Assembly: GCA_016699385.1 (NCBI GenBank)
Contig: CP064974.1
Location: 954,617-1,018,616 of the forward strand
Origin: Candidatus Moraniibacteriota bacterium
Lineage (GTDB): Bacteria; Patescibacteriota; Minisyncoccia; Moranbacterales; UBA1568
DNA: 64,000 nt
Reading direction: 5' to 3'
Below are positions 3,467 through 25,869 of this stretch, piece after piece. The translations under genes and the position numbers were made by a program. The notes below the pieces were generated by a model. The model did not search any database, was not told the DNA's origin, and was given only the letters and a program-made list of their open reading frames with translations. Each line of letters starts with the position of its first letter. Within the stretch, counting starts at the first letter, position 1.

Positions 3467-3517
3467 AATTCCTGAGTCATTCGAGTGCCACATAACACCT
3501 ATTACAATTCATCACAT

Positions 3518-4193: not shown

Positions 4194-4218
4194 TTGACAG
4201 GTGTTTTCGTGGTATACT
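4194..4218 (+). promoter_or_regulatory. Extended -10 promoter for the T4SS-like gene cluster
   Basis: TTGACA...TGgTATACT (TGn extended -10). Located inside the 5' part of the longest ORF 4175..6217, which argues that the real start codon lies downstream. Confidence 0.4.
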
Positions 4219-4252
4219 TTCCACTAGAAAACTGTTTTTGTTTTTTTGTTGT

Positions 4253-6217
4253 GTGAACAAAAGTAGTAAAACAAAAAAAACTCTCTTGTTTCGGGCTTCT
4301 CTTTTTGTGAGAAGTCATCCAGCTCTGCTCCTTGTGGTACTTGTAGGGTGTTTTTTGTTGACGCCAAACATGCATGTAGTGCAGGCTGGTAGTTTTTTGG
4401 ATTTAGTAACAACGCCGAGCGCGTGGATTAATGCGCTTATATATCCTTTCTTTTTGTTTTTTTCATGGATTGTAAATCTTGCTGCAGGGATTTTTGTTTG
4501 GGTTATCAATGCGACAACGTTTACAAAACTCATGAATGCGGGGGCCATCTATGAGGTGTGGCTTATTGTTCGAGATTTTCTGAATATATTCTTTATACTC
4601 GTACTTCTTTTCTCGGCATTTGCTACGATATTTCAACTCGATAGATATGAATACAAGAAAACGATTCCCATGTTGGTTATTATGGCGCTTTTGGTGAATT
4701 TTAGTTTTCCTATTGCGCGTTTTGTGATTGATTTGGCAAATGTGCCAATGTATTTCTTTTCACAAAACATATTTGGAGTGGATGGGCCTAACGAGATTAC
4801 CTCTGGAGTATTGAGTGGGACAAAGATGCAAAATATTCTTATACCAGGAATTAATGATGATAAGTCATTGGTAGATTTTAGTACAACCCATCTCCTTGCA
4901 GCGACCATCTGTATGTTTTTATTTGGTATTTCTTTCCTTGTTTTGTCAGTGTTGATGTTGGTTCGTATGATAGCGCTTGCTATTTTGGTGATGTTTTCAC
5001 CAATTGGATTTGTAGGGATGATTACACCGGCGTTGCAAGGTTTTGCGAAGGGATGGTGGGATAAACTCTTTAAGTGGGCGTTCTATGGTCCAATAGCAGT
5101 CATGTTTGTGTTGGTGTCGGTAATTGTTATGAAGTCTGCTGGAGACTCAATATATCCAACAGCGGGTGCTGGAGGGGTATTTCAATCCACGGGAAATTCC
5201 GTGAATGATAATATGATATCTGCTGTTGCCTTCTTTACTATCCCAATAGTGCTTTTTTGGATCGCTATTACCTCAGCAGAGAAATATAGCAATGATATGT
5301 CAGGTATGAGTGTGAAGTTTGGGTCGCAACTAGGGAGAAAGGCTGGGGGATGGGTAAGAAAGGGCGCTTGGGGAACTACGAAGTGGGCTGCAAAGGCTCC
5401 ATTGAAAGCGATTGATAATGTTACCCAAAATAGAATCTCCGGAACTACTCTTGGAATTCGTGATGCTTGGAGGAATAGGCAGTCTGCATGGTGGGGTGGG
5501 AGTGATATTGAGAATCGAAGAAAGAAAGTTTCTGATGATGTGGCATCTTCATTGAAACGCAAGGGAACGAGTACTCAAGAGGTTCAGAAGAAAGTTGCTG
5601 AACATGAAAAAGAAAATACTACTGAGGCAGATTTGAGGGAGCTTGTTAGAAAAAATGGTGATATTGCTGCTGCAATGGTGCTTGTGAAGCAAGGGAAGTT
5701 GACGGATGAGGAGTTTGCAAAGGTCCGAGTTGACCTTGATGATACTAAGGATAAAGCCTTAGTTGATCTTCTTGAAGGAAAAGTAAAGGAGAAGCGGATT
5801 GATTTGGTTATGAATTATAAGATTAACCAGGAAGCTACTGAATTAATGAAAAGATCTCCTGGTATGTCGAGGGAGGCGGCATTGGCTCGTGTTGGGGAGT
5901 CGGTAGCAGAAAAAGAAATCAAGAAATTAGCGCCAAGTAAATGGAAGGAGCAGAGTTTGAAGGATTGGTTTAGTCTTAAGGATGCTGCTGGAAAGGAAAT
6001 CGACTATGACATTGATGATTCAACTGGTGTGATTGAAGTGAAAGATAAAGTTACGGGTGCAGTTATTCACTCAGAAGGAGCGGAAATTTTGAGGGCGAAG
6101 GTTGCAGCTGCTCGAACCACATTTGGTTCATATCATGGTAAAAATAAGGATAAAGCAATTGATGATATGACTGGAGAGAAATTCACAATAGGGCAGGATT
6201 TGAAGATTTTTGTGTAA
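4253..6217 (+). CDS. VirB6/TrbL (PrgH/TcpH)-like polytopic membrane protein of a Gram-positive-type T4SS. It has a long charged coiled-coil C-terminal domain.
   Basis: After a signal-like N-terminus (KSSKTKKTLLFRASLFVRSHPALLLVVLVGCFLL) there are about 8-9 hydrophobic helices over ~370 aa. The last ~300 aa are K/E/D-rich. It sits immediately upstream of PrgI-like and VirB4 genes. Start is uncertain: GTG near 4253, GTG near 4307 or ATG 4370 (the ORF-track start at 4175 is a GTG upstream of the predicted promoter). Confidence 0.55.
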   Translation: MNKSSKTKKTLLFRASLFVRSHPALLLVVLVGCFLLTPNMHVVQAGSFLDLVTTPSAWINALIYPFFLFFSWIVNLAAGIFVWVINATTFTKLMNAGAIYEVWLIVRDFLNIFFILVLLFSAFATIFQLDRYEYKKTIPMLVIMALLVNFSFPIARFVIDLANVPMYFFSQNIFGVDGPNEITSGVLSGTKMQNILIPGINDDKSLVDFSTTHLLAATICMFLFGISFLVLSVLMLVRMIALAILVMFSPIGFVGMITPALQGFAKGWWDKLFKWAFYGPIAVMFVLVSVIVMKSAGDSIYPTAGAGGVFQSTGNSVNDNMISAVAFFTIPIVLFWIAITSAEKYSNDMSGMSVKFGSQLGRKAGGWVRKGAWGTTKWAAKAPLKAIDNVTQNRISGTTLGIRDAWRNRQSAWWGGSDIENRRKKVSDDVASSLKRKGTSTQEVQKKVAEHEKENTTEADLRELVRKNGDIAAAMVLVKQGKLTDEEFAKVRVDLDDTKDKALVDLLEGKVKEKRIDLVMNYKINQEATELMKRSPGMSREAALARVGESVAEKEIKKLAPSKWKEQSLKDWFSLKDAAGKEIDYDIDDSTGVIEVKDKVTGAVIHSEGAEILRAKVAAARTTFGSYHGKNKDKAIDDMTGEKFTIGQDLKIFV

Positions 6218-6252
6218 AAGCTTCCCATTTAGTTCGGTGCGAATTGTGTTTT

Positions 6253-7605
6253 ATGATTTACCTAAAACTTACTGACGATCAAAAAATAGCTAAGGCAAGT
6301 ACGCCGGTGCTTGTTTGGGCTACTAAGAATCCAGATGATGAAACGAGAGAGCAAGTTATTGAAAATCATGAACGATTTCGGAAGCTCCCATTTGAAGCGA
6401 AGTATAAACTTGGGTTCCAATATACTCCTGAGGTTATTAAGAAAATAGGGGAAGAGTTTGGAATGGATCCTTTGAAGTTAGCAAGTATTTCACGAGCACT
6501 TCGTAATTTCTATTTTGGTGATATAAAAAAAGGGGATATTTCCAGATTTTTAGGGGAAGAAATGGAGATATCATTGGAGCAAGCGAATAGGGTAGCTAAT
6601 ACTATAATAAAGAGGATTATTGAGGCTCCTATTCCAAAAGAGGCTTCTGAACAAGTGGATAATCTTCCACTTCTTGATGCGATTGCGAAGTATCAGCGGC
6701 TCTCTGAGCAGACGGTGACGGAGGATCGTATTGTGGTGAAGGGGGAATCTTCGCCGGTTCGCGGGTCTCTTCGCAATTGGTTGCGACATTATCGTGATGT
6801 GGTGGGTATACGGAAGCATTCTACGATGGAGAGGGGACAATTTCTTTTTCAGGGGGATAATACCAAGCGGCTTTCTGCAATAGAGCGAGAAAGAGTTTCT
6901 TTTCTTTTGAAGTCACTTGATGAGAATACGCCAGTATCAATCGATACTGATCGGCAAGAAATAATCTTTCCAGCATTTGAGGAAAGAGGAAATGCTGCGT
7001 CTGCGACCACAGCGGAGAGAGTGGTTCCAGCATTAGAGACTTCTTTTCGACCGCTCGAGAAGTTTCCAGCGCAGGCAGCGCCAATTCGAAAGGCGCTTGA
7101 GTGGAATAGAGAAGAGGTGAGAGGAAATGTTCTTCCTGAAAAGCGCTCGGAAGTATCGCAACAGAAGGCATCCACAACTGAAGTGGCAGCGCCTTTTGGA
7201 AATATTGCGCAACAGCCTTTTCCGGAAGCGGCAAAGTCACGAGCGGTTGGTGTATCGGCGCCGGTATATACACCTGCTTCTCCTCCTGTAGCATCGGGAG
7301 CCCCCATTCCTCAGCAGGGAAATATGAGCTTTAGCTCGAGTCATGTGCTCCCGCATGAGAAAGCGATTGCGGAGGCAAGTGCTCCGTCGCAGGATGCGCC
7401 AGTGCAGCAGAGTCCTCCTTCGAGTGTTCCGGAGAGTCCTCGTGAGCCAGAAGCGATTAGTGTGATTCGGCCGCGCGGGAATCATTCTGGATTTCGTGGA
7501 GGCGCTGAGAAAGAAACAGTAGCGTTGCCAGAGGGTAGCTCTGATGCTCCGCGTGTGGTAAACTTACGGAGTTCGGGAGGGAGAAACGCGCGAGGTCGAG
7601 TGTAA
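6253..7605 (+). CDS. Hypothetical protein of the T4SS-like locus. Soluble, with a Pro/Ser/Ala-rich C-terminal half.
   Basis: No recognisable motif. The N-terminal ~230 aa are globular-looking and the C-terminal ~200 aa are low-complexity (PASPPVASGAPIPQQG...). Its stop codon overlaps the next start as TAATG. Confidence 0.5.
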   Translation: MIYLKLTDDQKIAKASTPVLVWATKNPDDETREQVIENHERFRKLPFEAKYKLGFQYTPEVIKKIGEEFGMDPLKLASISRALRNFYFGDIKKGDISRFLGEEMEISLEQANRVANTIIKRIIEAPIPKEASEQVDNLPLLDAIAKYQRLSEQTVTEDRIVVKGESSPVRGSLRNWLRHYRDVVGIRKHSTMERGQFLFQGDNTKRLSAIERERVSFLLKSLDENTPVSIDTDRQEIIFPAFEERGNAASATTAERVVPALETSFRPLEKFPAQAAPIRKALEWNREEVRGNVLPEKRSEVSQQKASTTEVAAPFGNIAQQPFPEAAKSRAVGVSAPVYTPASPPVASGAPIPQQGNMSFSSSHVLPHEKAIAEASAPSQDAPVQQSPPSSVPESPREPEAISVIRPRGNHSGFRGGAEKETVALPEGSSDAPRVVNLRSSGGRNARGRV

Positions 7606-8084
7606 TGTGTTTGTTTGGGAAAAAGGTAAATGTTTTCAATGTGAGAGTGTTTGCGTGTAGAAAAGATATCATTGGAATGCGCTCTATGCTCTTCAATGTC
7701 CCACAATTTATTGATGTTGAAGATAAAGTAGCAGGCCCACTCACTGCCAAGCAAATACTCTGGATGGTTGGGATGGGCGGCGTATTGTTTATTGTGTGGA
7801 CATTCTTTGATACGACGACGTTCTTTGTGTTGTCTCTTCCGATTATTATTCTCTTTGTACTCTTTGCCTTCTATCGTCCTTACAATCAGTCACTCCTCTT
7901 TTTCTCTGTGAATGCGGTCATGTTTTTCTTCCGACCAAAGGTATATACCTGGGATCGCCCGGGTGTGGTGAAGAATGACATTGTGAAGCCGAAAGAAGAG
8001 AAGGTGATAATAGGTCCGAAGTCACTGTCAATCGAGGAGATACAATCATTGGCGAAGGCGGTTGATGGTGGGAAGAGTCGATAA
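7605..8084 (+). CDS. PrgI/VirB3-like small T4SS membrane protein
   Basis: Motif IDVEDKVAGPLTAKQILWMVGMGGVLFIVW (the family has KIfFGLTxRQ before two TM helices) and a later FFFRPKVYTWD. The ATG overlaps the upstream stop (TAATG), suggesting translational coupling. An alternative start is MRSMLF at ~7677. Confidence 0.5.
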   Translation: MCLFGKKVNVFNVRVFACRKDIIGMRSMLFNVPQFIDVEDKVAGPLTAKQILWMVGMGGVLFIVWTFFDTTTFFVLSLPIIILFVLFAFYRPYNQSLLFFSVNAVMFFFRPKVYTWDRPGVVKNDIVKPKEEKVIIGPKSLSIEEIQSLAKAVDGGKSR

Positions 8085-8203
8085 AGGAAGTTATTCTTGT
8101 GAAAAAGGGATTTTGATACTACGGATGAAATAATGATGAATGACTTGGGCGATATTTTCTTGGGATAAATGGAGTTAAAACCCCACCTTTGTGGGGATGA
8201 CAA

Positions 8204-8926
8204 ATGGATAAAATCTCTCTACCTATGGAAACTCTGAGTGATACCAAAAAACCAGCAGCGCAAGATTCAGCATCGAGCACGCAACGCTATGTGGAGGTTG
8301 AAGAGGTGCGCGATGGGGTGATTGTGCTCAAGAACGGAGCGTTTCGCTCGGTGCTTCTGGTATCATCACTCAACTTTGATCTCAAGTCCGCAGAGGAACA
8401 AGATGCTATCATTTTGCAGTATCAGAATTTTCTCAATTCTCTTGATTTCCCGGTTCAGATAGTTGTTTCTTCGCGACGATTTGATATTCGTCCCTACATT
8501 GAAGTATTGAAAGACAAAGAGAATCACCAGAGGAATGAATTGTTGCGACTTCAGATCTCTGAGTATCAGAATTTTATCAAAAGTCTTTCGGAAGTATCGA
8601 ATATCATGTCGAAATTTTTCTATATTGTGATACCGTTTTCTCCTGTTGAAGATAAGGAAAAAGGGCTATTTCATAGTTTGACGACACTTTTCAATCCGGC
8701 AGGAGCGATTACCGAACGTCGAGAGTTTTTTGAAACCTACAAGAATCAGTTGTGGCAGAGGGTGGATCATGTGAGCTTCAGCCTGTCGCAGACGGGGCTC
8801 AAAGTGGCACCACTTAATACTGAAGAATTGATTGAATTACTTTACAACTCCTACAATCCATCGCTTTTTACAACGCGGCTGACAAAGAATATTGAGGCGA
8901 TTGATTTGGCGGTTGAAAAAGTATAG
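8204..8926 (+). CDS. VirB4/TraE/PrgJ N-terminal domain as a separate ORF (first part of a split VirB4)
   Basis: RDGVIVLKNGAFRSVLLVSSLNFDLKSAEEQDAIILQYQNFLNSLDFPVQIVVSSRR matches the conserved N-terminal region of Gram-positive VirB4 homologues (Tn916 Orf16 / PrgJ type). It ends 98 nt before the ATPase ORF and is in a different frame. Confidence 0.6.
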   Translation: MDKISLPMETLSDTKKPAAQDSASSTQRYVEVEEVRDGVIVLKNGAFRSVLLVSSLNFDLKSAEEQDAIILQYQNFLNSLDFPVQIVVSSRRFDIRPYIEVLKDKENHQRNELLRLQISEYQNFIKSLSEVSNIMSKFFYIVIPFSPVEDKEKGLFHSLTTLFNPAGAITERREFFETYKNQLWQRVDHVSFSLSQTGLKVAPLNTEELIELLYNSYNPSLFTTRLTKNIEAIDLAVEKV

Positions 8927-9024
8927 CAAGGGTGTACGTTTTTCGAATTTTCCCTGAGTATCTGTATGCGTACATTTTTTGGTAGCTGGAGTTTTTGAGT
9001 CGTTGAATCTGGAATGAAACATAT

Positions 9025-10845
9025 ATGCGAGTCCCCTTTCTCTCCTCTTTGGGAGGAGAACAGAACGAAATATTGGAAAGTGAAGCGCTCTACCAGCGTG
9101 GCATAGCGCGTATTCGAGATCTTATCGCGCCGTCCGCTATCAAGGTAAGCGCGAATTCGTTGCAATCCGGTGAGACGCTTGTGCGGACACATTTCATTAT
9201 TGCTTATCCACGATATCTCAATACTAACTGGTTTTCACCGGTTGTGAATTTGGACTTTCCTATGGATACCGCGATGTTTGTGCATCCAATCGACACGCGA
9301 GATATATTGCGCAATCTCCTGAAGTCGGCGACACGCGTTGAGTCATCCATTCAAATAGAATCGGAGGCGGGAAAAGTTCGCAGTCCCGTGCTCGAGACAG
9401 CACTTCATGATATCGAGGAATTGCGCGATCGACTTCAGCAAGGAACAGAGAAATTTTTCCGTTTCAGTATCTATATTTCCCTCTACGCGCAGTCAATCGA
9501 AGAGCTCAATCGCATGAGTCGCTCTATCGAGGCGATGCTTGAATCCCAATTGGTCTATATCAAGCCAGCAGTCTTGCGTATGCAGCAGGGCTTTACTTCG
9601 ACCCGCCCTGTTGGCATGGATACACTCGATGTCGCGAATAATCTCAATACAGCGCCACTTTCAACGACTTTCCCCTTTGTGTCCGCCGATCTTTCTTCGA
9701 ATGACGGTATACTTTACGGCATCAATCGGCACAATAACAGCCTCATCCTCTTTGATCGGTTTAAGCTTGAGAATGCGAACATGGTGATATTTGCGAAGTC
9801 CGGCGCCGGGAAAAGTTATTTTATGAAGCTGGAAATCTTGCGATCGATGATGTTTGATACGAGCGTCATTGTGATTGATCCGGAAAATGAATACAAGCAC
9901 CTTGCCGAGACGGTAGATGGCTCGTTTATTCACATGAGCTTAAATTCCCCTTTTCATATTAACCCTTTTGATTTGCCAAAGAAGCGCGATGATCAAGAGG
10001 ACTTCGAGGGGCTCTTGCGGAGCAATATCGCAACCTTGATTGGACTCCTCCATCTCATGCTCGGCAGTGTCACTGCTGAGGAGGACTCGATACTCGATCA
10101 GGCGCTTCGCGAGACGTACGCGGTGCGTGATATTACTGGGAAAACGGATCTCTCGACGCTTACCCCATCATCATTTCCAACGATGAGTGACCTTTATGAA
10201 GTTTTGCGGAACATGGAGGGGACAGAGTCGCTGGCTGCTCGGCTGGAGAAGTATACACAAGGTATTTTCTCGGGATTTCTGAATCATTCAAGCAATATCA
10301 CCATGCAGAATCAGTTCGTGGTGTTCAATATTCGCGATTTGGAAGAAGAATTGCGCCCGATTGCCATGTATCTCATCTTGCATTATATCTGGAATGAGAT
10401 GCGCTCGGAGTTGAAACGGCGACTTGTTGTCGTGGATGAAGCATGGATTATGATGCAAAACGACGATGCAGCGAGCTTTCTCTTCGGTATTGCGAAGCGC
10501 GCGCGAAAATACTATTGCGGACTTACAACCATCACGCAGGACATCAGCGACTTCATGGGTTCGAGGTATGGAAAGCCAATCGTGACCAACTCGTCGCTTC
10601 AGCTTTTGCTCCGTCAGTCGCCAGCGTCAATTGATGTGGTGACAGAGACCTTCTATCTGACGGATCATGAGAAATTCTTGCTTTTGGAGAGCGCTGTTGG
10701 TGAGGGCATTTTCTTTGCCGGATCGAAACACGTCGCAATCAAAGTGGTGGCATCGTATAGTGAAGACCAGATTATTACCTCGAATCCAGAACAACTCGTA
10801 GAAATAGAGGCAGCGAAGCGCGAATTTGACGAACAAGGTGGTTGA
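9025..10845 (+). CDS. virB4: VirB4/TrsE/PrgJ-family conjugal-transfer-type ATPase (central and C-terminal ATPase part)
   Basis: Walker A VIFAKSGAGKSYFMK; Walker B-like LVVVDEAWIMM. Also IAPSAIKVSANSLQSGETLVRTHFIIAYPRYLNTNWFSPVVNLD and the C-terminal TTITQDISDF, all typical VirB4/CagE/TrbE. Confidence 0.85.
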   Translation: MRVPFLSSLGGEQNEILESEALYQRGIARIRDLIAPSAIKVSANSLQSGETLVRTHFIIAYPRYLNTNWFSPVVNLDFPMDTAMFVHPIDTRDILRNLLKSATRVESSIQIESEAGKVRSPVLETALHDIEELRDRLQQGTEKFFRFSIYISLYAQSIEELNRMSRSIEAMLESQLVYIKPAVLRMQQGFTSTRPVGMDTLDVANNLNTAPLSTTFPFVSADLSSNDGILYGINRHNNSLILFDRFKLENANMVIFAKSGAGKSYFMKLEILRSMMFDTSVIVIDPENEYKHLAETVDGSFIHMSLNSPFHINPFDLPKKRDDQEDFEGLLRSNIATLIGLLHLMLGSVTAEEDSILDQALRETYAVRDITGKTDLSTLTPSSFPTMSDLYEVLRNMEGTESLAARLEKYTQGIFSGFLNHSSNITMQNQFVVFNIRDLEEELRPIAMYLILHYIWNEMRSELKRRLVVVDEAWIMMQNDDAASFLFGIAKRARKYYCGLTTITQDISDFMGSRYGKPIVTNSSLQLLLRQSPASIDVVTETFYLTDHEKFLLLESAVGEGIFFAGSKHVAIKVVASYSEDQIITSNPEQLVEIEAAKREFDEQGG

Positions 10846-10906
10846 AATGATGTCTACTACTTCAAAGTGAAATGAAAGAAGTGGGCATTTGCTTGTATAT
10901 ATACCT

Positions 10907-11587
10907 ATGGCAGTTGCTCGTGTTGCGGTGAATGGTCGTGATAATTTTGCTCTTGAGCAGGCTGCTAAAGAAGAGCGAATGCTTTTTCGTGAGCAGCGAG
11001 AGCGCTTGCGACAGGCACAACAACAGGCGCACATCATTCAAGAAGAGGCAACCATTTCGGAAGAAGAGGAATTTGAATCGGAGCATGTGGAAATGGGGCG
11101 TGCAGAACGAGTAAGTATTTTCTCCTACTCAGCACCGTTCATCGTTGCTTGTTTCAAAGATTTTCTCGATTTTACTGTTGTGCTGGCGCTCCCGGGAATA
11201 GCGACTGTGATAAGTATGTGTGCCGATATACTTATATTATTACTCCTTTTCTTCCCAAAACATCGGTATCGACTTACAACGAATGCTCGATTGATTATTA
11301 TAGATGCATTCATCTTGATGGGACTTATTCCTCTTGAAGGGCTTGCGTTTCCATTTAATCTTCTCCCATTTACGGTGGCAGCTGTTGGAATGATTTATAC
11401 CGTCGACAAGAAGTTTGTTGCTGCACGAAATTCGAAGCGCTTTGATCGAAAGAAAATGAACGCAAATCTTACCGGTGTTATTCGACAGGCAGCGGATAAT
11501 CGGAAAAGTTCTGATAAAAGCAGGGTATCTGAACGGATGCAGTCTACTTGGGATACTCCAGAATATGAAGCTACACTTGGAGCGTAA
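10907..11587 (+). CDS. Membrane protein with an acidic/Q-rich N-terminal region and three C-terminal TM helices. T4SS-locus component of unknown role.
   Basis: Sits right after virB4. Hydrophobic helices: FIVACFKDFLDFTVVLALPGIATVI, ILILLLLFFP, IIIDAFILMGLIPLEGLAF. No recognised motif. Confidence 0.45.
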   Translation: MAVARVAVNGRDNFALEQAAKEERMLFREQRERLRQAQQQAHIIQEEATISEEEEFESEHVEMGRAERVSIFSYSAPFIVACFKDFLDFTVVLALPGIATVISMCADILILLLLFFPKHRYRLTTNARLIIIDAFILMGLIPLEGLAFPFNLLPFTVAAVGMIYTVDKKFVAARNSKRFDRKKMNANLTGVIRQAADNRKSSDKSRVSERMQSTWDTPEYEATLGA

Positions 11588-11611
11588 AAGAGGCACTAAA
11601 GGGTATATTTT

Positions 11612-12313
11612 ATGGCACCTTCTGAAAGAAAATACCCGCTTATTCAGTCATGTTTGAATCGGCGATTTCTCGCGATGAATGCGATAATAGCGGCAAGTAT
11701 TGTGCTTGCGCTTTTCTTTCCGATTTCGGGCACAGTAGAGCGATTTGTTTTAGCATTTTCAACATATTTTCTACTTCCGGCAGTATTTGTCCGTTTGGTA
11801 TTGCGAGAGCCACTGTCGACATTTGGCTTTTCATGGGGGAAAAGAGGTATCTTCTCGAATGTCGCATTGATAGTGTTGAGCGTTTGCGTGTTTGGTATGT
11901 TTGTGTGGGGAGTGCTTGCGGGCACATCTTTTGGGCAAGCATTTCTGAATGTGTCTCGAGGAGCTCATGCGGCACTACATAGCGATTTCTGGGTGTTTCT
12001 CGGGTCCCTAGGATTTCTCGCGTGGTTTGTTTTTTTGAAAGAAGTTTTCTTTCGTGGATTTTTCTTGCTTTTCTGGAAACGATATGCGTATAGATGGAGT
12101 CTTGTAGCGCATTTCCTCCTCATTGCAGCTGTCTCTACAAAAGAGCTTCAAATATTTGCTGATTCGGGGAGTGGGGTGACGTTTCTATTTACCATTGTCT
12201 GGTCAGTCATCGCCTCAATACTTGCATTTGTGACAGAATCCGTGTTTGTGTCGTTCTTTTTCTCGTTGTTTTCTGCTATACTCATATCGGTTCTTGCGAT
12301 TTCGATATCATGA
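11612..12313 (+). CDS. Polytopic integral membrane protein (6-7 TM), function unknown
   Basis: Hydrophobic throughout. A KEVFFRGFF motif weakly recalls the CPBP/CAAX-protease motif 1 (EExxxR), but motifs 2 and 3 are not evident. Its stop overlaps the next gene's start (ATGA). Confidence 0.45.
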   Translation: MAPSERKYPLIQSCLNRRFLAMNAIIAASIVLALFFPISGTVERFVLAFSTYFLLPAVFVRLVLREPLSTFGFSWGKRGIFSNVALIVLSVCVFGMFVWGVLAGTSFGQAFLNVSRGAHAALHSDFWVFLGSLGFLAWFVFLKEVFFRGFFLLFWKRYAYRWSLVAHFLLIAAVSTKELQIFADSGSGVTFLFTIVWSVIASILAFVTESVFVSFFFSLFSAILISVLAISIS

Positions 12314-15018
12314 AACAAAAAGGCATTCTTTTTTCAAAAACATTTCTCGCTGCGATTTTTCTCGCTGCCTTTTTGGTATTTCCAAAAGGGGTTTCTGCTG
12401 ACATTACGGATGTGTTTGTCACCAATATGCCGACATTTTCCGGTACGGTTGAAAATTTCGAGCGTCGGTATCATCTCAATCTGGAGAGCTTGCAGAATCA
12501 GGGGGAAAACTTCAATGTCTCCTCACAAAAAGGACAATCTCCACAAGTATTGCTCTATTTCAGCCCCTCTGATCCGAAGCCGGGAACGGAGATGGAAGCA
12601 CGTGCCTTCCCTGAGTTTTTTGGGAATGAGAAGGATACACTGTATTACACGTGGTATATTCGTCGAAAAGGCTGTGATTTGAATAACTCTCCAAATGAAG
12701 AAACCCTGAAACTCTGCGATCGGGATTCGAGTCCAAGTAGCAATGACTGGAGAGTTGACCGATTTGGAAATAAACGGGTCATATCTGTTGAGGATTGGAA
12801 GATTGAAGCTATGCAGGCAATTGTTGCGGAAAGCTTTGACTCCACATGTTCGCTCAATGGCAGTCTTACTGATGAAGAGCGTGCAAACTGTGCGGAGAAT
12901 ATGTACAATCCCGATGCGCCAAGTCGGGTGAATCCGACGGGGAACAAGGGGAACGATCGCGATGCGGATGGCTACCGCGCGACTTATGGAGGTGATGGGA
13001 AATCGGGACAAAATTCCTATTGTTATATTCATGATTTTCAGGATGGGGAGAATTACGAATTGACCAGTGGGTGTGAGCATCTCTTTCCGAATAATTATAA
13101 GATAGATGGGAATGGACGTATCTTTCGTGACGGAAATATCGGAGAAAGTGACGATTCGTTTTCTATAGATGAAGAGCATTTCTGGCGTACTGATCCAGAG
13201 GACCCGAGCACTGCGCAAAATGGCAATAAGGATGAAGCAAATATAGCTGGTTTGGGACAAGGGACATTTAAGTGGACGTATCAACCCGAAGATAGAGTTG
13301 GCGTTGTTGTGGAGGGCGCTTCTCTTTATACAACGAAGTACGATGATTCGAGCATGATGATTATGTGGGCATTGCCCAAGAATGTCTGCGCGGTTGTTGG
13401 GAAAGGAACGAAGCAAATTACAACAAAAGGCTTTTCGAGTGATGCGACAGCACAGGTGACCATTAATACCTCGACGACGGATATTAATGACTGTCTGGAA
13501 GATAACCTTGTCGATCCGACAGAGGGCGCACAAGCAGAAAATGTCGACGTTTCTCTCTCGTATGCGCCGGATGCGCCTTCTGCGAAGCTTATTCCTTGGG
13601 GGGATGATACGACCGATGCCAAGCTGATTGCTCAGACAGGGGATATGTTGACGATCAATGCCGCTTCTTCAAATGTGGAGCAAAGCACGGCGCTTACCAA
13701 TTACACGTGGCGCGTTCAGGCGAGTAAAGACGGCACCTTCAATACTCGCTTCAGTGACGAGAATGTGTGGACGGATATTACGCGCGATCTCCAAACAGCA
13801 AAAAACATCAGTGTGCCAAGTGGTAACAATGTTTCTTCCCTTTCGATTAACCTCAATTTAAATAGTACTGTTTATACTGATGCGAAAACGAACACGCTTA
13901 TCCCTGGTTTTAGTGAATACTTTGTTGACGATGTGGCATATTTCCGTATTATGGTGAGCGCAACGACGAATTTTGCCGGTGCAGTCAGTCAGAGTGGATC
14001 AAGTTCGGTTGTTGTCAAAATCGTGGCGAACAAGTCTGTCGATGTCTACGATGTTGATACAGTGAAAGACTCGACAACCGGACTTGTGAGCGTCAAGCGG
14101 AATAGCACAGAACTCTGTAAGAGCAATACGTTCCAGCAAACCATTTGCCCTGTTTTGAACAATCAAGTGGTAGGCGTGTTCCTGTCGACGGGTGAGGGAG
14201 AAATCCGTGATTATGCGTGGACACTCAATGGTCAGGCGCTTACGTGTACATCCCGAGTGTCGGGCGAATGTGATGATACGAAGCAGGGAGCGGTTAATTT
14301 TTTCCCTATTTCTGGAAATGTGGGGGATATGTATATCGTGACGGTAGTTGCCAACAATGCTGAAACGGGAAAGTCATTCACAGTATCGCGACGCTTTCAG
14401 ATTGTGGATCCAGATTTTGACATTGTTTCGACTGATACTGAGGCGGCCTGGCCGAAATACCTCGGTAAGTATGTCAATCTTGATGGTTCGGAGTCTGATG
14501 ATATGAGTAAGACGTCCTTTGAGGGAGTCGTGGGAGGTGTTGCGCAATTGTCCGCAATATTCCGTCCGGAAGTGCTCGGTACATTTGTCTTGAATGGTGT
14601 CAAAGCGGGTGATGATCAAAATGAAATGATCTGGTCTATTAATGGCAACCCTTTCAAGTGGAATGACACAGGTCTCTCACTTTCGCTCGACGGGAATGTC
14701 GGCGATATCTATACCGTGACGCTCTCTGGTGCCTATAATCAACCTCGCGAGCTCCGCAAAGCGCTCTATGATATCTGGCGTATTTCTCCCTTTAGCTCTG
14801 AAACGGTGCGATTTTCGAAAGAGATTCAGATTCAATTGATTGATGGGAACAACTATCTTGGTAAGACAAAATCAAATACGTTCTTTGCATCGATTCTCTC
14901 GGCAGTACCTCCATTTGTACTTTTTTCCGTCCGACTTATTCTTTCAATGGGGCTCATCCTTCTGATTATCGGTGTAGTGTTTTCATTCGCTCCGGAAACA
15001 AAGGAAGATAGGGCGTAG
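12310..15018 (+). CDS. Large (902 aa) secreted surface protein with an N-terminal signal peptide and a C-terminal TM anchor. Unknown function.
   Basis: Signal peptide MKQKGILFSKTFLAAIFLAAFLVFPKGVSAD. The mostly Thr/Ser/Asn/Asp/Gly-rich ectodomain predicts beta-rich structure. C-terminal FFASILSAVPPFVLFSVRLILSMGLILLIIGVVF followed by a short charged tail. Sits in the T4SS-like locus. Confidence 0.65.
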   Translation: MKQKGILFSKTFLAAIFLAAFLVFPKGVSADITDVFVTNMPTFSGTVENFERRYHLNLESLQNQGENFNVSSQKGQSPQVLLYFSPSDPKPGTEMEARAFPEFFGNEKDTLYYTWYIRRKGCDLNNSPNEETLKLCDRDSSPSSNDWRVDRFGNKRVISVEDWKIEAMQAIVAESFDSTCSLNGSLTDEERANCAENMYNPDAPSRVNPTGNKGNDRDADGYRATYGGDGKSGQNSYCYIHDFQDGENYELTSGCEHLFPNNYKIDGNGRIFRDGNIGESDDSFSIDEEHFWRTDPEDPSTAQNGNKDEANIAGLGQGTFKWTYQPEDRVGVVVEGASLYTTKYDDSSMMIMWALPKNVCAVVGKGTKQITTKGFSSDATAQVTINTSTTDINDCLEDNLVDPTEGAQAENVDVSLSYAPDAPSAKLIPWGDDTTDAKLIAQTGDMLTINAASSNVEQSTALTNYTWRVQASKDGTFNTRFSDENVWTDITRDLQTAKNISVPSGNNVSSLSINLNLNSTVYTDAKTNTLIPGFSEYFVDDVAYFRIMVSATTNFAGAVSQSGSSSVVVKIVANKSVDVYDVDTVKDSTTGLVSVKRNSTELCKSNTFQQTICPVLNNQVVGVFLSTGEGEIRDYAWTLNGQALTCTSRVSGECDDTKQGAVNFFPISGNVGDMYIVTVVANNAETGKSFTVSRRFQIVDPDFDIVSTDTEAAWPKYLGKYVNLDGSESDDMSKTSFEGVVGGVAQLSAIFRPEVLGTFVLNGVKAGDDQNEMIWSINGNPFKWNDTGLSLSLDGNVGDIYTVTLSGAYNQPRELRKALYDIWRISPFSSETVRFSKEIQIQLIDGNNYLGKTKSNTFFASILSAVPPFVLFSVRLILSMGLILLIIGVVFSFAPETKEDRA

Positions 15019-15132
15019 AGACGTAAGATTTTGCGTCTTTCCCTGAAGGGCAATAGAGGTGGCGTAAGGAATAGACAAAAACACAAAAGTCTGCGTATCT
15101 ACGTGAAGGACTGATGATATAAAGAACCTCGT

Positions 15133-16503
15133 ATGAAGTATCTGAAACAAATTGGGAAGATTTCTATTTTTTTACTTGGAGTCTTGGTTGTTTTCGGATT
15201 TTCTGAAAAGATGGTTTTTGGTGCGGAACCGACAACAGAAGCTGAATGTAAAGCGGTTACACCGAATGCTGGAGAATGTAGAGACGACATTGGTGTCGAC
15301 AGTTGCGCTGTTGGTGTATTGCACAAATATGGTACCTGCGGAACAGGAAAAGTCTGCTGTATTCGTTCCGGGAGTGTTGGATCAAACTGTGAAGCAAGTG
15401 GAAGAACAGGATTATGCAAAGAGAAAGATGGATGTAGTTCCTCGACTGAGGATGACCTTGGCGTTGGAAAAGACTGCCAGAAAGGAGCGCCAAATCTTCC
15501 TGATCTTACATGCTGCTCTTTAAAAAGTTCTAGTTCAAATCCAGATGTGACTTGCAATAAGCTGCAATGTGGCAATGGGATTTCTGGAACATGTATGCCG
15601 GCGTCTCCGGGTTGTGGTAATCTGACGCAGTATGGATCGTGCGGATCGAATCAACAGGGCGGATCTGTGTGTTGCATTCCAAAAGATTGTTCGCCTACGA
15701 CAACACCTACGGCGAACACATCTGGCTCCACTTCTCTCAACTATACCCCGCTTGAAAATTTGCCGGGGTTTGATGGGCAGAGTGGGGATTTCGCGACGTA
15801 TTTTGGGAATCTCTATAAATTGGCGCTGTGGATTGTGGGGATATCGGCACTTTTTATGCTCGTCGTAGGAGGATTTCTCTATCTTTCAAGTGCGGGGAAT
15901 ACCTCGCTTCTCGGCACTGCCAAGAAGTATATCTACTCCGCACTTATCGGGCTCGTGATTGCACTTATCTCATGGCTCCTCCTCGATACGATAAATGGCG
16001 ATTTGACGAATCTGAAACTGAGTGGACTGAATGGCGCAATTGGAACGAGCGGATCGAATTCTAGCTCTGGGGAAACACCAATAGCTGGGTCTGGGTCGGG
16101 TTGCAGTGGTGCAGAGACTCAATCCGGAGCACATTGCGAAGACGCGTCGCAAGCTGTTTCAGATGCACTTAAATGTATAGTTGACAAACTTGGAAGTAAG
16201 AAGATACAAATATCGAGCATTTCCGAAGATTCTGGAGGAAAGAGTCTGTTTACTCAATGTAGAGATAGCTATAGTCAACCTCCTTGTGAGCATACTACCA
16301 ACTCATGCCACTATGGTGGGAAAGCAAAAGCATCAAAATCATGTGCTGCTGATATATCAAATTCATATACGAGTAATGCTGGAGCTGCGTCGAAAGAAGA
16401 AATAAAGGTTGCTGCTCGTAGTTGTGGTACCCCTTTTATAAATGATGAGGGAAATCATGTACATATAAGTGTATCAGGTTGTGATTGTGATGGACATAAG
16501 TAG
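15133..16503 (+). CDS. Secreted Cys-rich protein carrying a VirB2/TrbC-like pilin hydrophobic core between Cys-rich ectodomains
   Basis: Signal peptide plus an N-terminal domain with two copies of a C-x-C...GxCGxGxVCCI motif. A central two-helix hydrophobic hairpin (YFGNLYKLALWIVGISALFMLVVGGFLYLSSAG...AKKYIYSALIGLVIALISWLLL) resembles TrbC/VirB2 pilins. The C-terminal Cys-rich domain has SCHYGGKA...AADI...EGNHVHIS, weakly reminiscent of LAS/M15-type zinc peptidase motifs (inference only). Confidence 0.5.
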   Translation: MKYLKQIGKISIFLLGVLVVFGFSEKMVFGAEPTTEAECKAVTPNAGECRDDIGVDSCAVGVLHKYGTCGTGKVCCIRSGSVGSNCEASGRTGLCKEKDGCSSSTEDDLGVGKDCQKGAPNLPDLTCCSLKSSSSNPDVTCNKLQCGNGISGTCMPASPGCGNLTQYGSCGSNQQGGSVCCIPKDCSPTTTPTANTSGSTSLNYTPLENLPGFDGQSGDFATYFGNLYKLALWIVGISALFMLVVGGFLYLSSAGNTSLLGTAKKYIYSALIGLVIALISWLLLDTINGDLTNLKLSGLNGAIGTSGSNSSSGETPIAGSGSGCSGAETQSGAHCEDASQAVSDALKCIVDKLGSKKIQISSISEDSGGKSLFTQCRDSYSQPPCEHTTNSCHYGGKAKASKSCAADISNSYTSNAGAASKEEIKVAARSCGTPFINDEGNHVHISVSGCDCDGHK

Positions 16504-16507
16504 GCGT

Positions 16508-17665
16508 ATGAAGAAATTTTTCATCATTACGGCGGTTTTGTTTGGAGTGTTGCTCTTGTTTTTCTTGATATATAATTTTCTTTTCAGAAATAATCCGCTT
16601 GATGGGAAGGTGCCAAATGTCGCGGTGATTCCAAATGAACCCAGTGCTTCTCCTCCGAAGCAGAGTGATGCGATGAAAGATCAGAAAATAGCGCCGCTTA
16701 CCGATGGCGAGGGAATTGTGCCGTTCTTTGATGCGAAAGATCGCGCAGTGTTCTATCTTGCACCAGATGAGAAAGCGCTCAAAGAAACTTTTCTCGCAAC
16801 GGGATTGCCGAAAACGGTGGTCAATTTCCCTTTCATTCCAAAGGATATCGTGTGGTCGCCAGATGGCGGGAAGGCATTGGTAAAGAAGAATGACACCGAG
16901 TGGGCGCTCTTTGTCCGGCAAAATGAAGGCGGATCGGGCGAATCAATGGTGTCTCTCTTGAAGCCCGGGATAGAGAGTCCGACATGGACGAGTCTTGGCG
17001 ATCGCATTGTCTACAAATATTTCGATGCGACGACAAAGAAGCGGACACTCAATATTGCCAATCCCGATGGTTCCGATTGGGGGATGATTGGAGAGACGCC
17101 GTTTCAGTTTCTTGAGATGCGCCCGGTGCCGAAGAGTTCGATGGTGGCGGTGTGGAATCGAGGAAATGCTTTTGAACGGACATCGCTCAAAGCATTGCCG
17201 ATTGTGGGCGGGGATATGCGAGAGATTTTTTCTGCCAACTATGGCGCGGACTACCTTTTTGCACCGAATGGCACGCGTATTCTCGTGTCCAATTCGATTG
17301 AGAAAGGAAGCTCGAGCATTTCCCTCGCACTTCTCAATGACCAAGGTGGTGAATATACCAATCTCTTTGTCCCGTCTCTTGTGGGGAAGGCGGTGTGGTC
17401 GAAGAATAGCCGGTTTGTCTACTACGCCCTTCCCGGGTCGATACCGGCGGGGAGTATTCTTCCGAATGACTACTATCGCAAACCGATTCTGACAATGGAC
17501 ACATTTTGGAAAGTGGATGTCGAGACCGGCGAGAAGTCACGCGTAGTGGATCCAAATGATATTGATCAGAGCTATGATGCCGAGAACCTTGTGCTCGATG
17601 CCGATGAAACCATGCTCTTCTTCCACAACCGACATGATGGGAAAATCTATCGAATCAATCTGTAG
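16508..17665 (+). CDS. N-terminally membrane-anchored beta-propeller protein (TolB/PD40-like repeats)
   Basis: N-terminal TM (FFIITAVLFGVLLLFFLIY). Repeated WSPDG / APNGTRIL / VWSKNSRFVYY type motifs typical of PD40 / WD40-like propeller blades. The start ATG is 4 nt after the upstream stop. Confidence 0.55.
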   Translation: MKKFFIITAVLFGVLLLFFLIYNFLFRNNPLDGKVPNVAVIPNEPSASPPKQSDAMKDQKIAPLTDGEGIVPFFDAKDRAVFYLAPDEKALKETFLATGLPKTVVNFPFIPKDIVWSPDGGKALVKKNDTEWALFVRQNEGGSGESMVSLLKPGIESPTWTSLGDRIVYKYFDATTKKRTLNIANPDGSDWGMIGETPFQFLEMRPVPKSSMVAVWNRGNAFERTSLKALPIVGGDMREIFSANYGADYLFAPNGTRILVSNSIEKGSSSISLALLNDQGGEYTNLFVPSLVGKAVWSKNSRFVYYALPGSIPAGSILPNDYYRKPILTMDTFWKVDVETGEKSRVVDPNDIDQSYDAENLVLDADETMLFFHNRHDGKIYRINL

Positions 17666-17707: not shown

Positions 17708-19087
17708 TTAGAGATTGTGAGGGGGCTGTTTTTCAGAAGAAATTGTTTTTTTACCTGTCTTCGCATGTTCGCTTCGAAAGCCGCAAAAAAACAATTTCTT
17801 CTGAAAAACCGTGCGAAGCGAACATCCCCTTTCCGCAGTGCAATCAAAGAGGGCTTTTCTCTCGGGGAGAATGCCGAGAAAAAATATAATCCAGAATATA
17901 TAGGCGAGACTCATTCTCCAATAGGGCGTGTCGAAGAGTCCATGGATAATGAGTGCGAGCATGATTGCCATGAGCGTCAAGAGAACCGAAGGGTTCTCTG
18001 TTTTCGTATATATTCGAAGGGTGTTTCGAAACCAAAGGATAATGAGAATGCAAAAGGAAATAAGTCCGACAACGCCGCTTCCGAGCCAAAAAGCGAGGAA
18101 AATGTTGTGTGGCTCCGGCACCGACCATTCGAGATAGGGTGGGAAGTATTGTTGATAGACAAGGTAGCAACTTTGGAAATTTCCCGGTCCGACGCCAAAG
18201 ATAGGCGAGTCTATGAGCATTTTCTCGGCGGACTTCCAAATCATAACGCGCGACGCGAATGATGATCGCGAGTCCAGATTGAAGAAATGTTCAAATCGCG
18301 GGGTGTTTCTTTGGGAGAATGCGACCATTGAAATGAAAATTGTGGCGATGCTGAGGACACTTGCGAGTCTTTTGAAGGTTATGCGATGTTGTACAACCTC
18401 AAGCGAGAGTATGGCAATGAAAGTGGCAATCCACGCTGAAAAGGAATGGGCGGAGAAGAGAAGAATAAAAAACATGGCAGTGTATGCAAGCCAGAGAAAT
18501 GTTTTTCGCGTTCGGAAAAAGTACCAAGAGAGAAGAGTCGCTGGTGTGAGAAAGAGTGCGAAAGCGTTTGGAGAATTGAAAATACTTTCGAATCGTCCGT
18601 CATAGGTCATTCCGCTTCCAAAAAGCCACATGAGAAGAGAATATATTCCGAAAGGGAAAAAAGATACCGCGAAAAGAAATATCACATTCTCGCGCGAAAA
18701 ATACCGTTGAGAAGCGAGATATATACTGTATCCAAAGAGGAGAGGAAAGAGAAACCATGATTTGAAAATACCGAGTGATCGGAGAAACGATTCGGATGAA
18801 AGTGGACAGATTGCACTCTCTGAATGCGCGGCAAGAATCGAAGTAATGACGCCTCCAAGAAGCAGGAGAATACCAGTGTTTATTGCGGATGGTGGGAATA
18901 CAAATACGCTCTTTTTTTGAGATTTCTGTGAGAGTGAGGTGTTTTTTGCAAGGAGAATGCTTGTGGCAAAGAATGTGACGGCGAGTTCAATGAAATATAT
19001 TGGTATGCCAAAGAACACAAAGCGCGCACCTTCGAAGGGAAGGAGAAAAAAAAGAGCAATTATATTGAAGAGAAGGAATGTTTGCAT
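17708..19087 (-). CDS. O-antigen ligase / Wzy-like polytopic membrane protein (paralog 1)
   Basis: Multi-TM. YDGRFESIFNSPNAFALFLTPATLL and RVMIWKSAEKMLIDSPIFGVGPGNFQ ... PHNIFLAFWLGSG are typical of the O-antigen ligase (Wzy_C) family. The ORF-track ORF (to 19519) has a 144-codon low-complexity 5' extension overlapping the next gene. The start was trimmed to ATG at 19087 (MQTFLLFN...). Confidence 0.7.
   Translation of the reverse strand: MQTFLLFNIIALFFLLPFEGARFVFFGIPIYFIELAVTFFATSILLAKNTSLSQKSQKKSVFVFPPSAINTGILLLLGGVITSILAAHSESAICPLSSESFLRSLGIFKSWFLFPLLFGYSIYLASQRYFSRENVIFLFAVSFFPFGIYSLLMWLFGSGMTYDGRFESIFNSPNAFALFLTPATLLSWYFFRTRKTFLWLAYTAMFFILLFSAHSFSAWIATFIAILSLEVVQHRITFKRLASVLSIATIFISMVAFSQRNTPRFEHFFNLDSRSSFASRVMIWKSAEKMLIDSPIFGVGPGNFQSCYLVYQQYFPPYLEWSVPEPHNIFLAFWLGSGVVGLISFCILIILWFRNTLRIYTKTENPSVLLTLMAIMLALIIHGLFDTPYWRMSLAYIFWIIFFLGILPERKALFDCTAERGCSLRTVFQKKLFFCGFRSEHAKTGKKTISSEKQPPHNL
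17726..17811. repeat. Copy 1 of a dispersed palindromic repeat element (~85 bp hairpin with a long loop)
   Basis: CTGTTTTTCAGAAGAAATTGTTTTTTT ... AAAAAAACAATTTCTTCTGAAAAAC arms. A related copy at 51311..51416 keeps the pairing through compensatory changes. It overlaps the 3' end of ORF 17708..19087. Confidence 0.7.
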
Positions 19088-19133: not shown

Positions 19134-20384
19134 TTACAGTACGAAAGCAATGAGGCTAAGAAAGAGTGGGAGAATATGTACCGAATAGAGCGGTGTTTCG
19201 AAGAGGCTATGAAGAGAGAAGATGAGGAGTGCGCATCCTCCAGCAAAGATGAGTGGGTTATTTCGATATTTCGTGAGTGATCGTGTGAGAGTAATTGAAA
19301 GGAGGAGGAAGAAGAGTATTGCCGATAGTATACCGGTTTCGGCGGCGATATCGAGTAGGGTATTGTGAGCATAGCGCGGTTCACGATAGGTTGCTGAGGG
19401 GAGTACGGTATTGGAATAATTGCCGAGACCGACGCCGACAAATGGGTGTTGCTCAATAATATGTATTGCCTCGCTCCAGATGGCGATCCGACCACTTGTC
19501 GAATGATCAGAGAGATCAAAGGTTGAAATGAGTCGACTGGAGAGCGGATTTGGTGTGGCAGCTATGAGTACAAGGAGAAGTCCCGATATGCTGAAGGCAA
19601 GAATGTGTTTGTGAATGAGCTCTGAAAAGAGTATACCCAAAGCGAAAAGCGCTGTGATGAGGAGAGCAAGGTATCCGCCGCGAGAGAAAGTGAGAATATC
19701 TGCGAGCAGTATGATGAAAGATGCCACTGAAAAGGTTATGCGTGTTTTTGGCTGCGTTGTACAGAAAGCGAGCATGAGTGAAAGTGGAATCGTCATGCCC
19801 CAGAAGAATGAGGCGATATGTGGGTCGGGGAAAAAAGCGCTTGCTCGGAGGAAATTTGTTCCACCAACATTGACCACCATGCTGGAATATTCCGAAACAA
19901 CATCGGAGAAAGTGTGTCCGGAAAACAGTGGAAGAATAGTGCTCTGCCAGAAGAGTATGGCTGGATCGAGGCCGATAATAAACGGAAGAAAAAATTGTGC
20001 GATGCCGACAATACCAGAAATCACTGAACCATACACAAGCACTCGTGCAAATATTTCTCGCGATTTTGCTTCACGGAACACTGAAAAAGCGACGAAGAAA
20101 ATTGGAAAGAACGAGAGGAGAAAGCTGAGTTTGCGCAGTCCCCATGAAAGATTCTCAACAAAGAAGAGAGAAAATGCCAAGAGAAAGAAAACAGAGAGCA
20201 AGAGAAATGCTTCTAATCTTGAGGGGAGTGGTAATGATCGGCGTATGAGTGAATGAATAAACCATAGTCCCGAGAGCCCGATGACGAAGAGTCTGGAGAT
20301 GTGAAGGTCGATGCCCGGCATCGGACTCAGGGCAAATTGAAAGGGAAGCGTCGCAAAGAAGAACAAGAAAAAAAAGCGAGTCAT
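19134..20384 (-). CDS. O-antigen ligase / Wzy-like polytopic membrane protein (paralog 2)
   Basis: LTFSRGGYLALLITALF, SGRIAIWSEAIHIIEQHPFVGVGLGNY and AHNTLLDIAAETG motifs (PF04932-like). 10-12 TM helices. Confidence 0.75.
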   Translation of the reverse strand: MTRFFFLFFFATLPFQFALSPMPGIDLHISRLFVIGLSGLWFIHSLIRRSLPLPSRLEAFLLLSVFFLLAFSLFFVENLSWGLRKLSFLLSFFPIFFVAFSVFREAKSREIFARVLVYGSVISGIVGIAQFFLPFIIGLDPAILFWQSTILPLFSGHTFSDVVSEYSSMVVNVGGTNFLRASAFFPDPHIASFFWGMTIPLSLMLAFCTTQPKTRITFSVASFIILLADILTFSRGGYLALLITALFALGILFSELIHKHILAFSISGLLLVLIAATPNPLSSRLISTFDLSDHSTSGRIAIWSEAIHIIEQHPFVGVGLGNYSNTVLPSATYREPRYAHNTLLDIAAETGILSAILFFLLLSITLTRSLTKYRNNPLIFAGGCALLIFSLHSLFETPLYSVHILPLFLSLIAFVL

Positions 20385-25098: not shown

Positions 25099-25204
25099 GA
25101 TTCGAGAAAATGAGTTTTAAGATGAAATTTTATTGAAATATTTGGTATCTTTCTGAAGAACAGCGTGGGTAGTATATCTTCTTGACACTTCCTTGAGTGG
25201 ATTT

Positions 25205-25696: not shown

Positions 25697-25869
25697 AGGA
25701 CACTGTCTGATGCAAAAAGTATTTCGAAGTGTACCAAAAGGGAGAAAAAAGTCAAACGGTCGAATTATCCACAGGTTGTGCACAGCCCTTTTTACAAGGG
25801 ATATCGAAGTGGTGTAGTGTGGAGAAGTGAACAACAATTTCTGTGGAAAAGTGGGGAACGAACCGTGTT
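25697..25869. other. Candidate oriC (rpmH-dnaA intergenic) with DnaA boxes
   Basis: Perfect TTATCCACA at 25765..25773, plus TGTGGAAAA (1 mismatch to TGTGGATAA) at ~25838. Divergent gene orientation flips here. The AT-rich dnaA-dnaN spacer (27433..27513) could hold the unwinding element. Confidence 0.6.

Follow-up and report, generated by a model that had tools for sequence, protein, structure and literature searches.

Three sites in a 64,000-nucleotide stretch of the genome of a Candidatus Moraniibacteriota bacterium (assembly GCA_016699385.1, contig CP064974.1, positions 954,617 to 1,018,616 of the forward strand; this whole stretch is called the window below) were found to carry copies of a short repeated sequence, two of them with a long internal palindrome. 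The host is a member of the candidate phyla radiation (CPR)/Patescibacteria with a small genome of ~1.1 Mb. It is likely that the three sites represent one family of non-autonomous palindromic transposable elements similar to miniature inverted-repeat transposable elements (MITEs). According to this proposal, the full element would be ~137 nt long and without coding capacity; terminal inverted repeats (TIRs) of 11 nt (GAGYCYGTTAA) would enclose an internal palindrome, with A/T-rich arms of 25-26 bp and a loop of 30-32 nt, and a right-hand segment of ~40 nt. Insertion would take place at CT(A)nG-like sites, with a short direct repeat left behind.

Copy 1 lies at the 3' end of a ligase gene, copy 2 upstream of a DHH phosphoesterase gene and copy 3 in an operon spacer. 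The closest homologues of the ligase and of the DHH phosphoesterase were Candidatus Moraniibacteriota/Moranbacteria proteins, and the best DHH homologue was 100% identical to the window protein. For comparison of the loci, relatives were graded by ligase identity (L032, 98%; L031, 87%; L033, 72%; L055 and L059, 60-61%) or by DHH identity (L049, the sister genome CP064989.1, 90%; L053, 83%; L050, 72%).

Termini, flanking repeats and empty orthologous sites

The features of copies 2 and 3 are as follows.

51312-51448, + strand: copy 2, 137 nt, full-length, lineage-specific insertion
51307-51311, no strand: left direct repeat of copy 2, CTAAG, flank sequence
51311-51321, + strand: left TIR of copy 2, GAGCCTGTTAA, overlapping the direct repeat by 1 base
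51328-51353, + strand: left palindrome arm of copy 2, 26 nt
51384-51409, + strand: right palindrome arm of copy 2, 26 nt
51439-51449, - strand: right TIR of copy 2, GAGTCTGTTAA, motif match
51449-51453, no strand: right direct repeat of copy 2, CTAAG, flank sequence
51461-51489, - strand: promoter-like block (TTGACC, 17 nt, (TGc)TAGGTT), directed towards the DHH gene (50081-51217, - strand)
43125-43196, + strand: copy 3, 72 nt, internal-deletion derivative, lineage-specific insertion
43121-43124, no strand: left flanking repeat of copy 3, CTAG, flank sequence
43124-43134, + strand: left TIR of copy 3, GAGTCCGTTAA, motif match
43187-43197, - strand: right TIR of copy 3, GAACCTGTTAA, motif match
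43197-43201, no strand: right flanking repeat of copy 3, CTTAG, the complement of which gives the TAA stop codon of the 82-aa gene
43198-43446, - strand: conserved 82-aa membrane-protein gene, its stop codon adjoining copy 3

Of the four ends of copies 2 and 3, three matched the TIR motif GAGYCYGTTAA exactly and one had a single mismatch; there was no exact match elsewhere in the window. Short direct repeats flanked both copies (CTAAG/CTAAG for copy 2, CTAG/CTTAG for copy 3), and CTAAAG/CTAAAG flanked a diverged relative of the element in L050, which is described below. When the element and one repeat were removed in silico, the window sequence aligned straight across the empty junctions of L049 at both copies. 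The rebuilt junctions read CTTCTAAGATACTCAAACC in the window versus CTTC-AAGATACTCAAACC in L049, and CTAGAATGAGC versus CTAGAACGAGC.

It had been suggested with the original prediction, which was made from the sequence alone, that insertion sites should be compared between related strains. The comparison, made here between related species, showed that the sites differ and are empty in sister genomes. Empty orthologous sites were obtained for all three copies, namely in L049 and L053 for copy 2, in L049 for copy 3, and in L055 and L059 for copy 1. Four properties of a MITE were found together in this family: short non-coding units well below 1 kb (137, ~141 and 72 nt), TIRs, flanking duplications, and occupied versus empty orthologous sites. 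The sole open reading frame (ORF) across the copies was a non-conserved read-through tail of the ligase.

The flanks said to be common to copies 1 and 2, CTGTTTTTCAG...CTGAAAAAC(A/C)GTGCGA, were indeed found in both. The 16-mer TTTCTGAAAAACAGTG had 11 matches in the window at up to 3 mismatches, versus 1.0 expected.

Copies 2 and 3 in their gene contexts

The arms of copy 2 were 88% complementary when aligned without gaps. In effect they form a full stem with two single-base bulges, which arise because the A/T runs are unequal in length (8 A versus 7 T, and 7 T versus 6 A). Copy 2 was absent from the orthologous region upstream of the DHH gene in L049 and L053, and no match to the family was found at the orthologous position of L050. 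The promoter-like block at 51461-51489 was conserved in four species (L049, L053, L050 and the window). It may be the promoter of the DHH gene; a consensus promoter scan did not call it. Copy 2 begins ~12 nt downstream of the candidate -10 element, and would lie at the extreme 5' end of the leader of the DHH mRNA.

Copy 3 had been presented as a third site that keeps both borders and lacks the internal hairpin, possibly a deletion derivative, and this description held. The parts common to copies 3 and 2 were AGAGYCYGTTAAGAAAG on the left and the right-hand 50 nt, TTTCTGAAAAACAGTG...GATATTT..TTTAACAG; the hairpin was missing. Since copy 3 retained its two ends and the final 17 nt of the right arm, but not the left arm and the loop, it was assigned as an internal-deletion derivative. 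It has the stop codon of the 82-aa gene on one side and, on the other, the bPH_2 gene (42438-43070, - strand) of the same operon. The statement that copies 2 and 3 are intergenic was borne out, with copy 3 directly abutting that stop codon. In L049, copy 3 was absent and the spacer was only ~30 nt long. The longest ORF in the copy 3 spacer (43131-43436, - strand, 101 aa) was spurious, the true gene (43198-43446) being in another frame.

Copy 1 at the ligase junction

Copy 1 was assigned as an old, fixed copy. Its features are as follows.

17710-17850, + strand: copy 1, ~141 nt, aligning with copy 2 along its full length
17728-17752, + strand: left palindrome arm, 25 nt, 100% complementary to 17785-17809
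17753-17784, + strand: loop, 32 nt, with the conserved motifs TGTCT and CGAAAGCCGC
17785-17809, + strand: right palindrome arm, 25 nt, pairing with 17728-17752
17708-17854, - strand: read-through tail of the ligase, ~47 codons and a stop codon, encoded by copy 1

Decay was evident at both outer ends of copy 1 (left, AGAGATTGTGAG; right, GCAATCAAAGA). The copy is situated between two convergent genes, the last gene of a type IV secretion system (T4SS)-like cluster (16469-17665, + strand) and the ligase gene (17708-19087, - strand), and the ORF that runs over it carries a Wzy_C domain of the O-antigen ligase family. The position at a convergent junction, over the 3' end of an O-antigen-ligase-like gene, was therefore as first described; the extent was not, as ~47 codons are affected and not ~30.

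Copy 1 was present at the orthologous convergent junction of L032, L031 and L033. It was absent from L055 and L059, where the two convergent genes overlap by 11-19 nt. This distribution indicated that the insertion was ancestral to a sub-clade. The ligase ORF runs through copy 1 in the window, L032 and L031; in L033 it stops ahead of the element, and copy 1 is intergenic there. Among the homologues compared, the ~47-residue tail was restricted to the window protein, P0001 and P0002, and P0003 (from L033) ended earlier. A HMMER scan of 1.8 billion protein representatives with the 48-aa tail gave P0001 as the sole match. The annotated O-antigen-ligase-family protein of the P0001/P0002 type is 459 aa long, and its C-terminal ~47 residues are translated repeat element. 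Such a tail probably reflects the insertion, as an artefact of read-through or of annotation.

Inspection of copy 1 by hand also showed a perfect 12-nt complementarity between the loop (17765-17776, ATGTTCGCTTCG) and a segment just 3' of the hairpin (17814-17825, CGAAGCGAACAT). Most of it was retained in L031 and it was lost in L033; in copy 2, a comparable pairing of 9 bp is shifted in position. This complementarity could form a pseudoknot or an alternative pairing.

The T4SS-like cluster extends within 1112-17665 and comprises TrbL_3, PrgI, TraC-like, VirB4/DUF87 and T4SS pilin genes; its end coincides exactly with copy 1. A tyrosine recombinase gene (1112-2035, - strand) and a gene for a LysM/CHAP protein (2324-3466) are located upstream. 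The cluster could be a conjugative module similar to an integrative and conjugative element, or a CPR-specific secretion or uptake system.

Hairpin stability and conservation

The folding energies of the hairpin were -42 to -50 kcal/mol with z-scores of -5.0 to -6.7, and none of 200 shuffled sequences was as stable. The palindrome is far beyond chance. RNA folding with covariation analysis had been proposed as a check on the original prediction; its folding part gave this clear result, and the covariation was weak. Across the four full copies, 97.3% of the stem cells were paired, compared with 57-67% in slid controls. Three stem pairs were changed on both sides, with G-C to A-U replacements at two of them and U-A replaced by A-U and by G.U at the third. 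Between copies 1 and 2, one pair differed as G-C to A-U and another as U-A to A-U, confirming the compensating changes that had been noticed at the outset. The arms had also been called perfectly self-complementary, ~25 nt in each copy. This applied to copy 1 (25 nt, 100%), but not to copy 2 with its 26-nt arms, 88% complementarity and two bulges. The covariation score was reached by 13 of 500 shuffles and was based on four sequences only, so the statistics are weak.

In the orthologues of copy 1, arm identity to the window was 98% (53/54) in L031 and 83% (45/54) in L033. The corresponding values were 75% and 66% for the loop, and 88% and 69% for the third positions of identical ligase codons. 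The arms were more conserved than third codon positions and the loop was not, which suggests that the arms themselves are under constraint beyond pairing alone. Of the four positions in the core helix of L031 and L033 that were not Watson-Crick pairs, three were G.U on the window + strand, and this strand folded ~10 kcal/mol better. The minus strand folded better for copy 2, so the strand signal was inconsistent.

These data bear on the idea that the sites are primarily a structured RNA module, that is, a cis-regulatory or stabilising hairpin or a small-RNA gene family that is kept by the host for its fold and copied by duplication. The very stable fold, the compensatory changes, the excess conservation of the arms, the G.U bias on the + strand in L031 and L033, and the location of all copies in probably transcribed regions are what such a module would predict. 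However, the Rfam search of the whole window gave 0 matches at the gathering threshold, and in E-value mode only eukaryotic miRNA hairpin models appeared, far below threshold (18-35 bits versus gathering scores of 54-245). No promoter or terminator-like site of its own was found within or beside any copy, copy 3 has no hairpin at all, and TIRs, direct repeats and clean empty sites are unexpected for an RNA gene. Together with the inconsistent strand signal and the weak covariation, these observations make an RNA module improbable as the primary identity, and the suggestion of a small-RNA family was not upheld; the related question of whether the sequence is a known, annotated RNA family was answered in the negative by the same Rfam search.

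On both strands, T-runs lie ahead of the stem and A-runs, not a U-tract, behind it. An intrinsic terminator, which would need a G+C-rich stem with a U-tract directly behind it, was rejected, as there were 0 terminator-like sites at all three loci. An invertible-promoter switch was also rejected, because the 30-32-nt loop is in the same orientation in all full copies. A DNA-level site of the host, such as an operator or other protein-binding palindrome, a bidirectional terminator, or a cruciform for replication or transfer (oriT-like, next to the T4SS-like cluster), would agree with the position of copy 1 at the cluster end and convergent junction and with arms that are more conserved than synonymous sites. 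This explanation appeared most unlikely of those considered, since the contexts of copies 2 and 3 are unrelated and sister species lack both copies, U-tracts and terminator-like sites are missing on either strand, and neither TIRs nor flanking duplications are expected for a binding site.

Search for further copies and for a mobilising partner

A covariance model (R1) was built from four full copies, i.e. copies 1 (W1) and 2 (W2) of the window and those of L031 and L033. The scores of the four source copies were 106-128 bits, as follows by construction. One independent match was obtained at L050 7349-7470 (30.6 bits, E ~1e-5), a diverged relative at a different locus. It has perfect 24-bp arms (GACCGCAAAAAATAATTTTTTTCA...), its loop has TTGCTCCGA in common with copy 2, and it sits between the genes for LGT and an AI-2E transporter, unrelated to the sites of the window copies.

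A scan with R1 gave no further convincing copy in the window and ~6 kb of extra flank. Several candidates were rejected: 25150-25190 (8 bits with R1), 32088-32167 (17 bits, a different hairpin), and 19915, 38712, 51082 and 54602, which were word matches with 3 mismatches only. In the genome contig collection, which evidently does not contain the window's own genome, the pattern GTTTTTCAGAA-N40-70-TTCTGAAAAAC retrieved 30 loci; all were unrelated palindromes arisen by chance or tandem arrays, and BLAST showed no similarity between them and the window. Motifs of arm, loop and arm retrieved 15 loci from metagenome contigs, none with the palindrome, the pattern scan of viral contigs gave 0 matches, and BLAST against plasmids gave no match to the element. 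A six-frame peptide query of the element gave no matches, but it also missed the known positive control P0001. A full-text literature search for MITEs or palindromic repeats in Patescibacteria or Moranbacteria yielded nothing relevant.

L050 carries other long A/T-rich palindromes with arms of 37-53 nt, at 17887-18011, 19675-19782 and 20283-20383. They occupy three consecutive spacers of the RuvB-YebC-RuvC region, one of which is the counterpart of the copy 3 spacer of the window. The region looks like an insertion hotspot, and the palindromes like a second element family.

No transposase was found in the element, in the scanned ORFs of the window or in the Pfam annotation of the syntenic loci, and no Y1-transposase-like domain or REP-associated tyrosine transposase (RAYT) was seen in the window. 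Repetitive extragenic palindromic (REP) sequences, their mosaic arrangements (BIMEs) moved by RAYT, and elements of the IS200/IS605 type insert beside a specific short sequence in one orientation. A palindrome of this kind, moved as single-stranded DNA by a Y1/HUH enzyme, would account for the palindromic core and for the fact that all three copies are in the same orientation on one replichore. In addition, the CT(A)nG motif beside the insertion points could then be a target or cleavage motif and not a duplication. Nevertheless, the true 11-nt TIRs are lacking in those families, the 137-nt unit is much longer than REPs (~20-40 nt), neither a Y1 transposase nor a RAYT gene was seen in the window, and three copies do not establish an orientation bias (chance ~25%). 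Compared with the definition of REP/BIME (a unit of 20-40 nt, no TIR or target duplication, a RAYT gene), the element was different in size, TIRs and flanking repeats, and no Y1-transposase-like domain was seen in the window. We regard this origin as very unlikely. Of the designation as a REP/MITE-like mobile palindrome, the MITE half could be retained on the basis of TIRs, direct repeats, empty sites and the deletion derivative, and the REP half was dropped.

Several observations weigh against a MITE-like element as well. There were three copies in the 64-kb window and none more in the ~6 kb of extra flank, and the family looks rare and narrow, the collection scans having given chance palindromes only. 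The target duplication is of ambiguous length (3-6 bp), since the repeat touches or runs into the TIR and the value shifts with the base chosen as the TIR start; the flanking repeats of copy 3 (CTAG/CTTAG) are not identical. The long palindrome is internal and not terminal, which is atypical for a simple MITE. Finally, no autonomous parent insertion sequence (IS) with matching ends was found, and there was no TIR match in the retrieved loci.

Proposed history and significance

If the MITE-like reading is adopted, copy 1 would have entered the junction of the ligase gene and the T4SS-like cluster in an ancestor common with the species of ~72% ligase identity, and would later have lost its ends. 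Copies 2 and 3 would have inserted once the lineage had diverged from the sister species (DHH 90% identical), and copy 3 would then have lost its left arm and loop through an internal deletion. A DDE-type transposase encoded at another place in the genome may have mobilised the copies in trans. The copies would be co-transcribed with host genes, in the 5' leader of DHH, in an intercistronic spacer and at a 3' end, and the hairpin could form in these RNAs. Complementarity of the arms might be kept by selection on the hairpin or on the arm sequence, or by self-templated repair of the palindrome.

A secondary role at the RNA level, such as protection of mRNA ends, processing or attenuation, is possible and compatible with the conservation of the arms. 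A stronger version, in which the hairpin is an exapted RNA module that has been kept by purifying selection at the ligase/T4SS junction across species-level divergence and whose new copies rewire expression, seems rather unlikely. If it were true, a hairpin of ~-40 kcal/mol would be present at the 5' end of a DHH/nanoRNase-like mRNA and inside an operon spacer, and this would be the first described MITE-driven post-transcriptional regulation in Patescibacteria. A hairpin that acts on RNA would also offer a simple handle on gene regulation in uncultured organisms.

This kind of element is well known, so its general significance is modest and the interest comes mainly from the host lineage. CPR/Patescibacteria genomes are ~1 Mb in size, streamlined and generally regarded as poor in mobile DNA. 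The family described here shows recent insertion activity between closely related Moranbacteria. Together with the palindromes of L050, the copies suggest that small palindromic elements have repeatedly contributed to intergenic variation in this lineage. The element also explains the spurious ~47-residue tail on an annotated O-antigen-ligase-family protein, and its copies are useful as strain and species markers.

Other features of the window

The GC skew changes from negative to positive at ~4.0-4.2 kb (window 3467-4250). The flip adjoins a 708-nt A/T-rich gap without any ORF of at least 90 aa and with a perfect DnaA box at 3770-3778. An rnpA-dnaA-dnaN block with its own DnaA boxes (25765-25850) is situated ~22 kb from the skew flip. 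Either an origin displaced from dnaA or a rearrangement would account for this distance.

Two direct repeats of 65 nt each, 89% identical and 1102 nt apart, were observed at 44893-44957 and 45995-46059. The segment between them contains small ORFs only and lies upstream of RuvB. Duplication of a promoter or leader could account for the repeat pair, as could another insertion with the repeats as its ends.

The gene at 46989-50027 (- strand) encodes a protein of 1012 aa in which two T2SSE/PilB-like ATPase units are fused in tandem, with internal DNA repeats 1344 nt apart and 70-83% identical. The fusion is kept in L049 and L050, and the gene of L053 is a single unit.

Another hairpin block, at ~51610-51723, is conserved in three species (~9640-9700 in L049 and 9737-9843 in L050). 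It is located at the start of a small ORF divergent from the DHH gene and reads CCTCTTTTGG...CCTCAAAAAGAGAGAAATATCGTCCCAAC on the minus strand. No Rfam family was found for it, and it could be a structured leader or a small RNA. The window contains no tRNA or tmRNA gene.

Comparison with known elements

The dispersed intergenic palindromes of the REP/BIME (RAYT) type resemble the present family in the compensatory differences between arms and in their frequent location at gene 3' ends. They differ in that a REP is 20-40 nt long and has neither TIRs nor target duplications, and in that a genome holds hundreds of copies alongside a RAYT gene; none of this was seen here.

Candidate mobilising partners would be IS5-family or IS630/Tc1-mariner elements. 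IS5-family members generate 4-bp CTAG/YTAR or 3-bp TNA duplications and have GA/GAG ends, and IS630/Tc1-mariner elements use TA within CTAG. The GAG ends of the element and its CTAG/CTAAG-like sites with a central TA are similar, but no such IS or transposase was present in the sequence examined, and the length of the duplication is ambiguous here.

ERIC/IRU and YPAL of enterobacteria are imperfect palindromes of ~127-170 nt in transcribed intergenic regions, with size variants and some old copies shared across species, a picture much like that of the present family. Once transcribed, their hairpin can make flanking mRNA segments more or less stable. Sequence and host are unrelated, and in our case recent insertions can be seen directly as occupied and empty sites, complete with flanking repeats.

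Correia elements (CREE/NEMIS) of Neisseria are non-coding units of ~100-150 nt with inverted repeats and a short TA-containing target duplication. The present element is like them in size, lack of coding capacity, inverted repeats, TA-containing duplication and intergenic location near genes, and also in the long hairpin, the length variants produced by internal deletion and the probable co-transcription with genes. In Correia elements, however, the 26-bp terminal repeats themselves form the hairpin, whereas here 11-nt TIRs enclose a separate 25-bp palindrome and an asymmetric right segment. The host, a CPR bacterium with a genome of ~1.1 Mb, and the apparently low copy number are further differences; the likeness is one of description, with no sequence relationship expected.

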